Source: an uncultured Fibrobacteraceae bacterium (lineage in GTDB: Bacteria > Krumholzibacteriota > Krumholzibacteriia > LZORAL124-64-63). From it: DNA of 64,000 nucleotides. The translations under genes were made by a program, and so were the position numbers. The first letter of the stretch is position 1, and every line of letters begins with the position of its first letter. The stretch spans positions 3,694 through 67,693 of the forward strand of contig CAYWTR010000012.1 in assembly GCA_964461255.1 (NCBI GenBank), written 5' to 3'. The notes beneath the pieces were generated by a model, which saw only the letters and a program-made list of their open reading frames with translations, was not told the origin of the DNA and did not search any database. This document shows, piece by piece, positions 1 to 64,000 of the stretch.

Positions 1-2226
1 GCGGTCTTCCTGCTGCTGGGCGGGACGGCCGGCGGCGCGGGCGCGGATGAAGGCGAATTCCTGGAGGGGACGGCAGCGGTGGGCGCCCGCTACACCGATG
101 TGCGGGACGAGCTCGGCCGGGCGGGCGAGTACGTCAGCGCCCGCGGCGTCGAGGACCTGCTGCCGCTGGTGACGCTGGACCTGCGCGCGGGGACTCCCCG
201 CACGTTGCTGGACGTCATGCTGCTCTACCGCGACGCCGACGAACAGGGTCTGGGCATGAGGCTCGACACCGGCGCCGACGTCACGGCCGGTTTCAGCTAC
301 GGCTCCTTCGCCCACAACCTCGACCATGACCGGCTGCAGAACCTGCAGGCGCGCGAGCTGGTGTGGAACGCCGGGGCGGGCGAGTTCCGGCCGGGCGGCA
401 AGCAGATCTACCACACCGACTTCGACCCGCGGGGCCGCTACTCCCTGCGCCACGAACGGCTCGAGGGCGAAATGGCGGTCCGGCTGCCCAAGCTCGCCGA
501 CGGCCGTCTTTACGCCAAGTACGACGACCAGCGGCGCCACGGCTGGCGGCAGGCGACGGCGATCGACCACTGCGCCTTCTGCCACATCTCGGCCGACCGC
601 CGCGAGGTCGACGAGCAGACCAAGACCTGGCGAGCGGGCGCCGAGGGCACGGTGGGACGGCTTTCCTGGAACTACGAGTACGGCGCCGCCGACCACCTGG
701 ACGGCTCGCGGTCGCCGACGCGGCGCTGGGCGGCGGCGATGCACCCGGTGTTCGGCGAAACCGATCCGGTCACCGGCGCCAATTACGCGGTCGAGTTCGG
801 CTCGCGTCTGGCGTACGCCGACGTCACGCTGCCGTACGCGCGCAGCACCTCGTCCGAGCGCCGCAGCCACTACGCCGGCCTGAAGCTGCAGCTGCCGCGG
901 GACAACACCCTGCGCGGCTCGTACCACCGCACCGACCGCAAGAACTGGGAAAGCGGGGTCGAAGGCAAGCTCGACGCCTACGCCGGCAGCTGGGCCTCGC
1001 AGCTGGACGCCAAGACGCGGTTGACGGCGCGCTTCCTGTCCTACCAGGTCAAGGTCGAGGACGTTTTCGTCGACCTGCCGAACTGGCGCAACGGCCGGCC
1101 CGGCGGCGGCCAGAGCTTCGACTGGACCCGCATCAGCGCGGCCAACCGCGACGTCTGGCAGACCGATGTCGACGCCAGTAGGCGGCTGTGGAAGGGCGGG
1201 CAGGTGCGCGCGGGCTGGCGCCACCAGGTGATCGACCGCCACGCCATGGCCATCTCCCACGCCACCTACGTGCCGGCCGACGGCGCCGACCTGTACGTGC
1301 CGGCCGCGCCCTACGCCAACGAGACCACGCTCGACCGCTTCAAGCTGGCCTTCTCCAATCGCTACGGGCGCAAGGGAAGCAGCCACCTGGACTACACCTA
1401 CACCAAGGTGGACCGCCCCTTCATGAACCCGACGGCGATGTGCGAGGAGGGGCTGCGCGGCGAGAGCCACAACCTGGACGGCAACAGCCTCGTCTACTAC
1501 TTCCAGCGCCAGCGCTACGGCAACGGCACCAGCCTGCCCTCGGCGTCGAATCGGGCCAACCTGCGCGGCGCCTACCAGCTCTCGTCGCGGACATCGCTCA
1601 GCGGCTTCCTGACCGCTGCCTTCGAGGAGAACGACCAGCTCAACGTCTACACCTACGAGCGGACCGTGCTCATGCCGGGGGTGAACGTCTGGACGGCCCC
1701 GACCGAAAAGCTGATGCTGACGGCCGGATACACCTGGAGCGTGATCGAGTCGAACGCCAACCTGTGTCCGCCAATCTTCGATGGGTGAGCGGGCCACCTG
1801 CTCGGGTCCGGTGCGGACCTGGAACACTTCGATTCGGTCGACGCCACCTCCGAGTACACGACGCGGACCACGGTCGCCTTCGTCAGCGCGAACTGGGCCG
1901 CCGGCGCGAAGCTCAACCTCTTCGCCGAGGGGGTCTACGCCCACGGCCAGGGCGCTTTCGACGGCTTTGGGCTGCCGGCCGTCAGCCACGCCGAGCACAC
2001 CGCGCCGAGCAACTGGGACAACGACTACTCGCAGATCTATCGCTACAGCGATCTCGACTACATCCAGCTCGAGGGGACCCTGGGGGCCGGCTACGCCCTG
2101 AACGCGCGCGCCAGCCTGTACGGGTCGATCTCGATGGTGGACCTGCGGGACGACCAGGCTTACGTTTACGGCGACCTGAGCGGCCGCCTGACCACGTTCG
2201 CCGCCGGCATGAACGTCGGCTTCTGA
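1..2226 (+). CDS. Outer-membrane beta-barrel protein, 5'-partial; single CXXCH motif (CAFCH, nt 571-585); in-frame TGA at 1786-1788
   Basis: Frame 1 is open from the window edge (signal-peptide-like AVFLLLGGTAGGAGA, nt 1-45) to TGA 2224-2226, with one internal TGA at 1786-1788. The same frame and GC3-rich codon usage hold on both sides of that TGA. Alternating aromatic/polar beta-strand pattern and a C-terminal ...AAGMNVGF typical of OM beta-barrels. Confidence 0.5.
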
Positions 2227-2320
2227 ACGCGACGCCCCGCGCGCCGCGTGCAGAGATGGGGGCTCCGATCAGGAGCCCCCGTCGTCTTTCAACCCCGCCC
2301 AACCCGCGGAGGCGCAAGCG

Positions 2321-3700
2321 ATGACGTTCCGCACGGTCAACCCCGCCACCGGCGAGATGGTCGCCGAATACCGCCTGCACACGGCCGCCGAGGTCGCCGC
2401 CGCCGCGCGCGGCGCGCGCGCCGCCTTCAGAGTCTGGCGGGAGCGGCCCCTGGCCCAGCGCACGGCTCTGCTCGGCGCGCTGGCCGCGGTCCTGCGCGCC
2501 CGCCGCGACGACTTCGCCCGGCAGATCACGCTGGAAATGGGCAAGCCGATCGCCGAGGCCCGGGCCGAGGTGGAGAAGTGCGCCTGGCTGTGCGAGGTCT
2601 ACGCGGAGCGGGCCGCGGACTGGCTGCGGGAAGAGGAGGTCGCCGCCGACGGCCTGCGCCACCGCGTCGTGCACCAGCCGCTGGGCGTGATCCTGGGCAT
2701 CATGCCGTGGAACTACCCCTTCTGGCAGGCGCTGCGCTTCGCCGTGCCGGCGCTGACGGCCGGCAACGCCGCGCTGCTCAAGCACGCCCGCAACGTCAGC
2801 GGCTGCGCCCTCGCCATCGAGGCGGCGTTCCGCGAAGCTGGCTTCCCGCCCGATCTGTTCCGCGCCGTGCTGGCCGATCACGCGGCGGCGGCGGCGCTGA
2901 TCGCCGGCGACGACATCGCCGCCGTCTCTCTGACCGGCAGCACCGAGGCCGGCCGCCGCGTGGCCGAAGCCGCCGGCCGGGCGCTCAAGAAGGTCGTGCT
3001 GGAACTGGGCGGGTCGGATCCCTTCATCGTGCTCGACGACGCCGACGTGGAGCTGGCGGCGGCGCAGGCGGTGCGGGGGCGGCTGCTGTGCAGCGGGCAG
3101 AGCTGCATCGCCGCCAAGCGCTTCATCGTGCACGCCGCGCTGGCCGAGCCGTTCACGGCCCGCTTCGCCTCCTTGATGGCCGCCCAGCGGGTCGGCGATC
3201 CCCTGGACGAGCGGACGCAGGTCGGGACCGTCGTGGGCGACGAGGCGCTGGCCGAGCTGGAGGCGCAGATCGAAGACGCGCGCGCGCGGGGAGCGCGCGT
3301 GGTGACCGGCGGGCGGCGGCTGCCGGGTCCCGGCTTCTTCCTGGCGCCGACCGTGCTGGCCGATGTCACCGCCGGCATGCGTGTCTGGCAGGAAGAGGTC
3401 TTCGGCCCCGTGGCGCCCGTGATGGCCGTGCGCGACGAGGAGGAGGCGGCGGCGGTCGCCAACGCCACCGCCTTCGGACTGGGCGGCAGCGTCTGGACGC
3501 GCGACCCGGAGCGCGGGGAGCGTCTGGCGCGACGCCTCGAGGCGGGAGCCGTCTTCGTCAACGGCATCGTCAAGTCGGACCCGCGGCTGCCTTTCGGCGG
3601 CGTCAAGCAGAGCGGCCTGGGGCGCGAGCTCGCGAGGCACGGCCTGCTGGAATTCGTCAACGTGCAGGCGCTCAGCGTCTATGCCCACGGCGCGGCCTGA
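2321..3700 (+). CDS. NAD(P)-dependent aldehyde dehydrogenase (succinate-semialdehyde dehydrogenase-like)
   Basis: 459-aa ORF. ALDH hallmarks: ELGGSDP glycine motif and catalytic Cys context CSGQSCIAAKRF. GGAGG Shine-Dalgarno ~6 nt upstream of the ATG. Confidence 0.85.
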   Translation: MTFRTVNPATGEMVAEYRLHTAAEVAAAARGARAAFRVWRERPLAQRTALLGALAAVLRARRDDFARQITLEMGKPIAEARAEVEKCAWLCEVYAERAADWLREEEVAADGLRHRVVHQPLGVILGIMPWNYPFWQALRFAVPALTAGNAALLKHARNVSGCALAIEAAFREAGFPPDLFRAVLADHAAAAALIAGDDIAAVSLTGSTEAGRRVAEAAGRALKKVVLELGGSDPFIVLDDADVELAAAQAVRGRLLCSGQSCIAAKRFIVHAALAEPFTARFASLMAAQRVGDPLDERTQVGTVVGDEALAELEAQIEDARARGARVVTGGRRLPGPGFFLAPTVLADVTAGMRVWQEEVFGPVAPVMAVRDEEEAAAVANATAFGLGGSVWTRDPERGERLARRLEAGAVFVNGIVKSDPRLPFGGVKQSGLGRELARHGLLEFVNVQALSVYAHGAA

Positions 3701-57180: not shown

Positions 57181-57337
57181 GCCCCGGTCAGGGGATGGAG
57201 TCCCCCGTCAACCGCCCTCTTGGGGCTGATGACTCCTGTAGGAAGCTGGGCAGAGGGCCTCTTCTGCCCGCACGGCAACCGCAGGATGTTGGCCCGCTCA
57301 GGCGGCCCGTCGATCCGGATCCCGGGAGGACTCCCCC

Positions 57338-58588
57338 ATGCAAAGCGCCTTCGCCCTGGCTTTCTTCTGGCTCGCCCTGGCCGTTCTCGCCACCATCCTG
57401 GCCAACCGCATGCGCGTCTCAATGGCGCTGGTCGAGATCTGTGTCGGCGTCGCCGCCGCCGCCGTCGTGACCCGCTGGCTGGGTCCGCAGGCCTTGGGCG
57501 CCGATCAGGACTGGCTGCGATTCGTCGCCGCCATGGGCGCGGTGCTGTTGACCTTCCTGGCAGGCGCCGAACTCGACCCCACGGTCCTGCGCGCAAAATT
57601 GCGCGAGGTGCTCGTGGTCGGGCTGATCAGCTTCCTGGCGCCCTTCCTCTTCTGCGCCGCCGTGGCGCACTGGCTGCTGGGGTGGAACGGGCCGCAGAGC
57701 TGGCTGGCCGGCGTGGCGCTGTCCACCACGTCGATGGCGGTCGTCTACGCGGTGATGCTGGAATACGGCTTCAACCGCACCGAATTCGGCAAGGGCATCC
57801 TGGGCGCCTGCTTCATCACCGATCTCGGCACCGTTATCGCCCTGGGCCTGCTGTTCGCGCCCTTCTCGCGCCGTTCGATCATCTTCATCGCTGTCTGCGC
57901 CGTCACCTTCGCCCTGCTGCCCGTCGTGACCGCTGCGCTGACCCGCTGGTTCGGGCACCGCACAGCCGCCATCCGCACCAAGTGGATCCTGATGGTGCTG
58001 TGCGGCCTGGGCGCCCTGGCGCTGTGGGCCGGCAGCGAGGCGGTTCTGCCGGCTTACATCGCCGGCATGATCCTGGCCGGCACGGTCAGCCGCGATCAAT
58101 TCTTCATCCGCCGCCTGCGCACCCTGACCATCGGTTTTCTCACCCCGTTCTATTTCCTGCGCGCGGGTTCGCTGGTGTCGCTGCCGTCGCTCGCCGCCGC
58201 CCCGCTGGTGATCCTGGTTCTGCTGGCCGCCAAGATCGCCTCGAAGGTGTTCGGGCTGCATCCGGTCATCAGCCTCTTCCGCGCGCAGGCGCGCGAGCGC
58301 TGGTACTACACCCTGCTGATGTCGACAGGGTTGACCTTCGGCACGATCTCGGCGCTGTACGGTCTGTCCAACGGCATCATCAGCCAGGAGCAGTATTCGA
58401 TCCTGGTCATCGTGGTGATCGCCAGCGCCGTGGTCCCCACGCTGATCGCCAATGCTTTCTTCCTGCCCAGCCACCTGCTGCCGGCTCGGCCAACCGCCGA
58501 CGAGGAGCTGACCTTGCTCGACCGGGAGACGACCGGACCCACGGCCGCGCCCGCCAGCGACCACGCCAATGGCCTGCAGAACGAATGA
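57338..58588 (+). CDS. Cation:proton antiporter (CPA1/CPA2 family Na+/H+ exchanger)
   Basis: 416 aa. GGGAGGA SD. 11-13 TM helices with CPA signatures (LLTFLAGAELD, FFLRAGSLVSL). No C-terminal regulatory domain. Confidence 0.8.
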   Translation: MQSAFALAFFWLALAVLATILANRMRVSMALVEICVGVAAAAVVTRWLGPQALGADQDWLRFVAAMGAVLLTFLAGAELDPTVLRAKLREVLVVGLISFLAPFLFCAAVAHWLLGWNGPQSWLAGVALSTTSMAVVYAVMLEYGFNRTEFGKGILGACFITDLGTVIALGLLFAPFSRRSIIFIAVCAVTFALLPVVTAALTRWFGHRTAAIRTKWILMVLCGLGALALWAGSEAVLPAYIAGMILAGTVSRDQFFIRRLRTLTIGFLTPFYFLRAGSLVSLPSLAAAPLVILVLLAAKIASKVFGLHPVISLFRAQARERWYYTLLMSTGLTFGTISALYGLSNGIISQEQYSILVIVVIASAVVPTLIANAFFLPSHLLPARPTADEELTLLDRETTGPTAAPASDHANGLQNE

Positions 58589-62606: not shown

Positions 62607-64000
62607 ATGATCCTCCGCCAAGCCTGCCGCGCCCGCCGCGGTGCCGCCGCGCCCGCGCGCTCGATGACCCTCGGGCTGCTGGGCGCCGTCATGGGCACCG
62701 CCGCCGTCGTGTTCGTGGCCGCCGCCCCCGCCGCCGCCGCGCCGCGCGCGGTGTTGGGCGAGCTGTTCTCGTCCGACGGCTGACCGTACTGCCCTTCCGC
62801 GGTCGCGGGAATCAGGCAGCTCGCTCAGGAATACGACGCGACGGCTTTCGTGCCCGTCACCTGGTACACATCCGCCCCCTACGCTTTCCCCGAGGGGGTG
62901 CAGCGCTTCTCCTGGCTCGGCTTCTCCGGCACCCCCAGCGCCATGTTCGACGGCTACGACGCCGTGGTGGGGGGCATGCCGGCCGGTTCGATGTACAGCA
63001 GCTACGCGCCTATCGTCGCCGCTCACCTGGCCGCCGACAGTCCGCTGGCGATGTCGGCCCAGTACGCCTTGCTGGGGACGACCGGCATGATCAACGTCCA
63101 CATCGAGGTGACCGCGGCGGTGACCACGACCAGCAACCAGGTGCATTTCGTGATCGTGGAGGACCAGGCCCACAGCCAGGTCAACCTGGCGCGGCGAAAG
63201 CTGGCCAACGAATCGTTCCTGCTGACGCAGCCGGGCCAGAGCGTCGACATCGCCCGCGAGTTCACGCTCGAGGCGGGCTGGGATCCGGACCGGATCGGGA
63301 TCGTGGTCTTCGTGCAGAGCCACGCCGGCAACAAGGCGGTGCTGCAGGCCGCGAAGGCAGTCCCGAACTACGCCGCGACCGTGGTGATCGACGCCGAGCC
63401 CGACGGCCTGGACGCCGGCTGGCATCTGAGCGGACCGTACGGCCTGTCGCTCAGCGGCAGCGGCGACAAGACGCTGCCGGTCTTCGCCGCCGGCGAGCAC
63501 ACGCTCGCCTGGCAGCAGGTCGCGGGCTGGACGACGCCGTCCCCCGCCACCCAGACGCTCGACGCGCCGGTCGGCGGCACCATCACCTTCGCGGGGCTGT
63601 ACACCGGCGGGGCCTTCGCCGCCGTCACGGCCGGTCCGCTCGGCGCCGCCGGCGCGGGCCGCGGCGTCAGCCTGATCGACGCCGACGGAGACGGCGACCT
63701 GGACATCTACGTCGTCAACCACCTGCAGTCCAACCGGCTGCTGCGCAACGACGGCGGCGGCCTCTTCACCGACATCGCCGCCGGCGCCCTGGCCGACGCG
63801 GGCCCCGCGGGCGGCGCCGCCTGGGCCGACTACGACAACGACGGCGACATGGACCTCTACCTGGCGCGCGACGGGCAGGCCAATCTGCTGCTGCGCAACG
63901 ACGGCGGCGTCTTCAGCGACGCCACCACCACGACGATCGCCGACGCCGGACCCGGACGCGCCGTCTGCTGGGCCGACTTCAACAACGACGGGCTGGTCGA
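62607..64000 (+). CDS. Candidate secreted selenoprotein (3'-partial): signal peptide – Sec(UGA 62781) – PYC thiol/selenol redox motif – globular domain – FG-GAP repeats
   Basis: AAGGAGAA SD then ATG 62607. 58-aa signal-peptide-like N-terminus ends ...LGELFSSDG followed by in-frame TGA. The same frame stays open with protein-like sequence for 405 more codons to the window edge (PYCPSAVAGIRQLAQEY...; DADGDGDLDIYVVNHLQSNRLLRNDGG.. FG-GAP-type repeats). SECIS-like hairpin follows the TGA. Confidence 0.5.
62789..62819 (+). other. SECIS-like stem-loop (bacterial type) 6 nt downstream of UGA 62781
   Basis: CUGCC-C-UUCCGC-[GGUC]-GCG(G)GAA-UCA-GGCAG: ~15 bp of pairing with an apical GGUC loop whose G/U fall at positions 21-23 from the UGA, similar to E. 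coli fdhF geometry. Confidence 0.4.

Follow-up and report, generated by a model that had tools for sequence, protein, structure and literature searches.

Does the TGA at positions 1786 to 1788 of this stretch end a gene for an outer membrane protein, or is it read as an amino acid in the middle of one? The stretch, called the window throughout, comprises 64,000 nucleotides (nt) of contig CAYWTR010000012.1 from an uncultured Fibrobacteraceae bacterium. On its forward strand, frame 1 runs from position 1 to position 2226, and open reading frame (ORF) translation gives this TGA as the sole stop inside it, in the context ...SNANLCPPIFDG-TGA-AGHLLGSGADLEHFD..., with a protein that ends ...AAGMNVGF. 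The first-pass annotation had described the frame in these terms, down to its ...NVGF end, and the translation bears this out. Among the options that it listed, it had singled out recoding to selenocysteine (Sec), and the conservation of the TGA in every homologous locus, the hairpin that follows it and a curated selenoprotein family all support that choice. Judged from these sequence comparisons, the UGA is very probably a programmed Sec codon inside a single gene of ~751 codons.

The gene begins 30 nt before the window, as read from contigs of the same organism, and ends at 2226. Positions 1 to 1785 (+) hold 595 of the 605 codons of its N-terminal part, up to the residue before the putative Sec. 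Positions 1789 to 2223 (+) hold the C-terminal 145 codons, which are predicted to supply the closing barrel strands and end ...GMNVGF, and the true stop, also a TGA, lies at 2224 to 2226 (+). The GC contents at the first, second and third codon positions (GC1, GC2 and GC3) are 0.66, 0.49 and 0.94 for positions 1 to 1788 and 0.64, 0.47 and 0.94 for positions 1789 to 2226. The values before and after the TGA are the same, in agreement with the earlier claim that codon bias continues across it.

That the TGA is false, made by an error of sequencing or assembly, is a general possibility with any such finding, and that generality is what can be said for it. The 605-residue product that ends at the TGA (P0001), which begins with the signal-peptide-like MKRLDVMICAAVFLLLGG..., is 100% identical on three separately assembled contigs. 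These contigs, from SRR34539588, SRR34539589 and SRR34539591, share both the TGA and the hairpin and show 2 to 4 differences from the window over 3 to 12 kb; a near-identical strain is the source of these three independent assemblies. An error is excluded because three independent assemblies carry the TGA, and the conservation of the TGA across species argues against it as well. We consider its probability negligible.

The same codon was then found well beyond this strain. The protein search returned 56 homologs of 23 to 56% identity, of which 55 are annotated as proteins of ~600 amino acids (467 to 624) that end ...C.P.F[DG]G; in P0056, Ile replaces the Cys. When one representative genome per species was scanned for the corresponding locus, 25 loci were obtained from metagenome-assembled genomes (MAGs) that carry the labels Candidatus Krumholzibacteriia/-ota, "uncultured Fibrobacteraceae" or "bacterium". 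The codon that follows the annotated end is TGA in 25/25 of these species-level loci. After it come [AG]G[HQ], mostly then x-x-G-S-G, and, where the contig is long enough, 141 to 154 open codons to a stop after ...GM[TS]VGF. Two further loci, L031 (33% identity, 64% GC; CVPVMDG-TGA-AGHI) and L032 (23% identity, 54% GC; VIPVFDG-TGA-AGGV, with the TGA at L032:7203-7205), bring the count to 27 of 27 homologous loci with TGA at the same column, at protein identities of 23 to 58% to the window. The hairpin is found in the same place in each of them. None of these loci has a sense codon at this column, contrary to the pattern that the first-pass annotation had associated with a pseudogene or an error. 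The motif around the UGA at 1786 to 1788 (+) can be written C-x-P-x-F-[DG]-G-U-[AG]-G-H. L032, the most distant relative, keeps the UGA and the hairpin and has Ile for Cys seven residues upstream and Gly for His three residues downstream of the UGA. The alignments show that neither this Cys nor this His is universal, and L032 narrows the universal core to P-x-F-D-G-U-A-G.

This distribution bears directly on the idea of a recent nonsense mutation, in which the gene would be broken at 1786 and the downstream frame would be decaying. A single in-frame stop in an intact gene is indeed what a fresh mutation looks like. Against this stand the identical TGA column in all 27 loci, down to 23% identity, and the implausibility of independent hits at one column in 25 species. 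The identities of the loci to the window show that they are not assembly duplicates of one genome. Moreover, the downstream 145 codons are conserved about as well as those upstream, with a mean identity to the window of 48% for the C-terminal part and 54% for the adjacent N-terminal part across 26 homologous loci, and they keep a GC3 of 0.94. Because the TGA and the downstream frame of 141 to 154 codons are conserved across species, a pseudogene is excluded; we regard this explanation as extremely improbable.

The N-terminal part matches the NCBIfam model NF041027 with 514.3 bits (cut-off, 350; E value, 4.8e-154), profile positions 2 to 580 of 580 aligning with residues 3 to 595. The model is named GSU2204_Se_pt_1, "GSU2204 family CXXCH-containing (seleno)protein", and its profile ends at the residue just before the TGA. 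A 2026 review of prokaryotic selenoproteins includes the family among its selenoproteins, assigning it a single Sec and naming no motif (PMC13188914). The window gene is thus a new member of the already catalogued GSU2204/OmcL selenoprotein family and not a new kind of thing. The same review credits NF041027 to Zhang and Gladyshev 2008 (GOS), and the main text there contains no cytochrome or outer membrane protein. It appears that the NCBIfam model was itself the first to describe these proteins as selenoproteins.

Downstream of the TGA, positions 1802 to 1822 (+) can fold into a GC-rich hairpin of the type of a bacterial selenocysteine insertion sequence (bSECIS). Positions 1802/1803 to 1810 pair with 1814 to 1821/1822 and close a loop of G1811, U1812 and G1813, which begins 22 nt past the UGA. 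The first-pass annotation had proposed a stem of 6 to 7 bp with a GU-containing loop; the hairpin and its loop are real, and the stem is longer than proposed, at 8 to 9 bp. Folded in isolation, the hairpin has a z score of −3.5 at a free energy of −13.2 kcal/mol, a stability that none of 200 dinucleotide shuffles matched.

The hairpins of the window and its 27 relatives (L001 to L025, L031 and L032) were compared with the bSECIS criteria of PMC13188914: a loop of 3 to 9 nt, an (upper) stem of 4 to 16 bp, a G in the first two loop positions that is usually followed by G or U, a distance of 16 to 37 nt from UGA to loop, and a minimum free energy (MFE) of −7.5 kcal/mol or lower. The window hairpin, with its 3-nt GUG loop, 8- to 9-bp stem, spacing of 22 nt and energy of −13.2 kcal/mol, agrees with every one of them, as do the hairpins of all 27 relatives (28/28 sequences in total). 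Among the relatives, the apical loops are GUU, GUG, GUA, GUC or AGUUC; over the whole set, the spacing from UGA to loop is 21 to 25 nt and the MFE ranges from −9.1 to −17.8 kcal/mol. In L008, L018, L022 and L024, the stem carries a one-nucleotide bulge in its 3' arm, ~20 to 36 nt past the TGA, instead of forming a continuous 8-bp helix.

Covariation in the stem was measured on an ungapped alignment of 24 sequences over an 8-bp helix. Paired cells make up 92.9% of the total; shuffles give 83.9%, with none of the 500 as high as the alignment itself, and registers slid along the alignment give 57.6% at most. Both-sided changes are found at three stem pairs; pair 21:33 occurs as CG13/GC4/AU1/UA1 and pair 18:36 as AU9/GC6/CG3. 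The third position of a Gly codon, where changes are synonymous, is coupled to the third position of an Asp/Glu codon (GGG-GAC, GGC-GAG, GGU-GAA and GGA-GAU), and this wobble pair shows all four Watson-Crick combinations.

These data also bear on whether the locus encodes two polypeptides, with translation stopping at 1786 and the C-terminal strands being made separately, by termination-reinitiation or as a split barrel. The hairpin would then serve some other purpose or be a by-product of the peptide sequence. Gene callers do annotate the two halves separately everywhere, and neither the window nor the fetched loci showed the Sec machinery; both observations fit such an arrangement. However, the first 100 codons of the C-terminal part in the window include no ATG, GTG or TTG, which rules out its translation as a separate gene. 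Elsewhere, the first candidate start is variable, falling anywhere from codon 4 to codon 52, well past the conserved AGH..GSG, and the residues immediately past the TGA belong to the best conserved ones. The covariation of the stem at wobble positions likewise disagrees with a by-product of the peptide.

When the 145-residue C-terminal part was searched against 1.84 billion representative proteins, 55 of the 58 matches were fragments of 36 to 150 amino acids, which shows that gene callers cut the family in two wherever it occurs. P0093, a distant paralog of low GC content with 775 amino acids and 23 to 25% identity, is the only continuous relative. It keeps the CXXCH motif and aligns over both parts, with a 6-residue deletion at the Sec loop and no Cys there. 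Its continuity across the junction indicates that both halves belong to one barrel protein. Overall, the two-polypeptide arrangement is very improbable.

If the UGA is read through in a single gene, the inserted residue could be a standard one, such as Trp, Cys or Gly, through locally stimulated read-through or a reassigned code. What leaves room for this is that no Sec machinery was seen in the sequence searched, the window and the fetched loci. UGA is the stop codon of 25 of the 31 confident genes in the window, the barrel gene included, which indicates a standard code with no genome-wide reassignment and speaks against the reassigned version. In addition, the position, loop size and G/U content of the hairpin fit a SelB-binding bSECIS in each of the 28 sequences, and NCBI curates the family as a selenoprotein. 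Finally, a standard residue, if acceptable at this position, would be expected to be directly encoded somewhere, and this is the case in 0 of ~80 sampled lineages. Insertion of a standard residue is therefore improbable, and Sec remains the preferred identity of the residue.

Several observations weigh against Sec recoding. Searches with Escherichia coli SelA, SelB and SelD (tblastn, E ≤ 1e-3) gave no selA, selB or selD in the window or in L001 to L028, and a transfer RNA (tRNA) scan of the window and 26 loci gave no tRNA-Sec. The space covered by the machinery search was the 64-kb window and ~400 kb of related loci; for 64 kb, an absence of sel genes is to be expected and is uninformative. 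No homolog with Cys in place of Sec was found, either among the 56 homologs or in the search of the 1.84 billion representatives with the C-terminal part, so that the argument from Cys/Sec pairing is unavailable. With regard to the hairpin, the fold of its 71-nt context is indistinguishable from shuffles (z = −0.73) in a sequence of 72% GC, and because of this the evidence from structure lies in the local hairpin and its conservation and not in the overall fold energy. There is no SECIS-type Rfam match in the whole window at gathering thresholds or in a permissive scan of positions 1700 to 1900. The conserved peptide GSG[SA][ED]L could account for part of the conservation of the stem, which, given the covariation at the Gly-Asp/Glu wobble pair, is not the product of protein conservation alone. 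No experimental support for Sec in the GSU2204/OmcL family turned up in the searchable literature.

The window contains a second UGA of this kind, at 62781 to 62783 (+), which the first-pass annotation had pointed out and which indeed exists (...GELFSSDG-TGA-PYCPSAV...). It lies inside an ORF at 62607 to 64000 (+) that bears a signal peptide, it forms a U-P-Y-C (UxxC) motif, and it is followed by a hairpin (UUCCGC-GGUC-GCGGGAA) whose loop is 17 nt past the UGA. If the stop is translated as Cys, the alignment to NF045500, "Omp28-related selenoprotein", extends over the junction, and its score rises from 37.4 to 47.2 bits, well under the cut-off of 200. Repeats of the FG-GAP/VCBS-like D-x-D-G-D type follow downstream. 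This UGA likely marks a second selenoprotein, and as such it suggests, as weak and independent support, that the organism uses Sec. A literature search on Krumholzibacteriota and selenocysteine gave nothing relevant.

By analogy with the established bacterial Sec pathway, the hairpin at 1802 to 1822 would act as a bSECIS. With the ribosome on the UGA at 1786, the complex SelB-GTP-Sec-tRNA(Sec) would bind the GU-containing apical loop ~22 nt downstream. Once Sec is delivered, translation would run on for 145 codons to the UGA at 2224, which has no hairpin. The hairpin resembles those of E. coli fdhF and fdnG in that it lies in the coding region just 3' of the UGA and has a small apical loop with G then U on a stable upper stem. 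It differs from these elements in having no sequence similarity to them and in the size of its loop, a GUN triloop that is very small and would become a 5-nt GGUNC loop on opening of the closing G-C pair; its binding by SelB is proposed.

From homology and synteny, the product would be an exported, MtrB-like outer membrane barrel with one covalently bound haem and one Sec in a conserved loop. The haem-binding motif, CAFCH (TGC GCC TTC TGC CAC), is the single one in the protein and lies at 571 to 585 (+). Exactly one CXXCH is present in each of the 56 homologs, and its two Cys and its His are invariant in the alignments.

A Pfam scan of both parts gave no hit at E ≤ 1, PF11854 (MtrB/PioB) included; weak precomputed hits to PF11854 exist on the relatives P0005 and P0055 only. 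The AlphaFold2 (AF2) model of the N-terminal part is an open beta-sheet barrel, with a mean predicted local distance difference test score (pLDDT) of 78.3 and a predicted template modeling score (pTM) of 0.70. Its best match in the Protein Data Bank (PDB) is MtrB (6r2q_B; E value, 1.5e-10; template modeling [TM] scores, 0.50/0.46; 10% identity). The model thus agrees with the earlier description of an outer membrane beta-barrel. Its last 8 residues are unreliable, and the Sec loop has a pLDDT of ~31.

With respect to the role of the Sec, the likeliest guess is a redox-active or metal/haem-ligating residue. Strand parity on the N-terminal model places the tip with the CXXCH (residues 191 to 195), the loop with a conserved Cys (C481) and the Sec loop on one side of the barrel. 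By secondary-structure parity, and assuming a periplasmic N-terminus, this shared side is the side of the long loops and nominally extracellular. Lack of a Cys form is uncommon among selenoproteins; here, none was found in the ~80 sequence clusters sampled. A bolder proposal is that Sec is obligatory in the family and that, given this placement in the model, the single haem of the barrel has it as axial ligand or direct redox partner; we offer it as a speculation that is probably wrong.

The operon is cut by the edge of the window. Just off the window, on a contig of the same organism, the upstream neighbor (L026:2584-3567, +) encodes a decaheme cytochrome of 327 amino acids that passes both NF041028, the GSU2203 family (365.1 bits; cut-off, 325), and the DmsE/MtrA-type model TIGR03508 (225.7 bits; cut-off, 192.2). 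The divergent gene L026:30-1982 (−) encodes 650 amino acids with 11 CXXCH motifs and a cytochrome b domain of the FdnI/HydC type, a cytochrome b/multihaem c fusion that we take to resemble Geobacter CbcL. In every locus whose sequence extends far enough to hold it whole, an ORF with 10 CXXCH motifs immediately precedes the barrel gene; L001, L019 and L020 show, at the contig edge, a 3' fragment of this ORF with 4 to 7 hemes. The gene with 11 hemes and cytochrome b adjoins in most loci and is downstream in L031. The trio of decaheme, barrel and cytochrome b/c fusion is syntenic in most related loci. From this gene order, it looks like an extracellular electron transfer conduit of the OmcKL type. 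The barrel, the OmcK-type decaheme and the cytochrome b/c fusion together would provide a path for electrons linking the quinone pool with the outside of the cell.

The closest known counterpart is GSU2204/OmcL of Geobacter sulfurreducens and syntrophic sulfate reducers, with which the window gene shares the NF041027 score, the single CXXCH and the GSU2203-family gene upstream. OmcK and OmcL (GSU2203 and GSU2204) have been put forward as a putative porin:cytochrome conduit, "OmcKL", in a paper that does not mention selenocysteine (PMC10553843), and up-regulation of both on hematite and magnetite has been reported (PMC4070692). In contrast with the Geobacter gene, the copy in the window is found in a genome of 72% GC, and its nearest relatives are in MAGs labelled Candidatus Krumholzibacteriia or "Fibrobacteraceae", not in Desulfobacterota. 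The locus also differs from Geobacter OmcKL, to which it is likened via family profile and literature, in having the divergent CbcL-like cytochrome b/c fusion adjacent.

MtrB of the Shewanella MtrCAB complex (6R2Q, chain B) is similar in being a large barrel whose gene stands beside that of a ~330-residue decaheme passing TIGR03508. The window protein differs from it in having no PF11854 hit, and no gene for an MtrC-like outer cytochrome was seen adjacent. MtrB is not known to carry a haem site or a Sec. ExtKL of Geobacter (NF040886), likened here by its listing in the review, is likewise a selenoprotein in extracellular electron transfer clusters (PMC13188914); it is a multihaem cytochrome, whereas the window protein is a barrel.

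Some other features of the window were recorded. A perfect 9-bp GC-rich inverted repeat at 2258 to 2280 (+), GGGGGCTCC-gatca-GGAGCCCCC, followed by GTCGTCTTTC, starts 31 nt past the true stop, between the barrel gene and an aldehyde dehydrogenase gene (2321 to 3700). A terminator and promoter scan of positions 1600 to 2400 scored nothing, this inverted repeat included. The only Rfam hit in the window is a fluoride riboswitch (RF01734) at 57182 to 57245 (+), with 55.4 bits (gathering threshold, 34) and an E value of 1.2e-12, and a 448-codon ORF (57242 to 58588) comes immediately after it. The other same-frame stop junctions considered as candidates (28623, 49605, 8563, 36473, 54116 and others) resemble normal gene ends.

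The family is already catalogued, and the present finding extends existing knowledge and overturns nothing. Gene callers split the gene at the UGA and leave the C-terminal strands as orphan ORFs of 36 to 150 amino acids, and genomes with the barrel gene consequently under-report both a selenoprotein and a complete outer membrane conduit. The OmcKL-type module, together with a CbcL-like inner membrane partner, is now found in a high-GC lineage near Krumholzibacteriia-labelled MAGs. The locus suggests a capacity for extracellular electron transfer in this lineage, which is likely related to Krumholzibacteriota, and such respiration would, by implication, depend on the supply of selenium. The combination of an invariant Sec, no Cys forms and a single haem makes the protein a good target for studying the role of selenium in an outer membrane electron conduit. 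If the Sec is indeed close to the haem, OmcL would be a haem/selenium redox site within a porin and not a passive sheath for OmcK.

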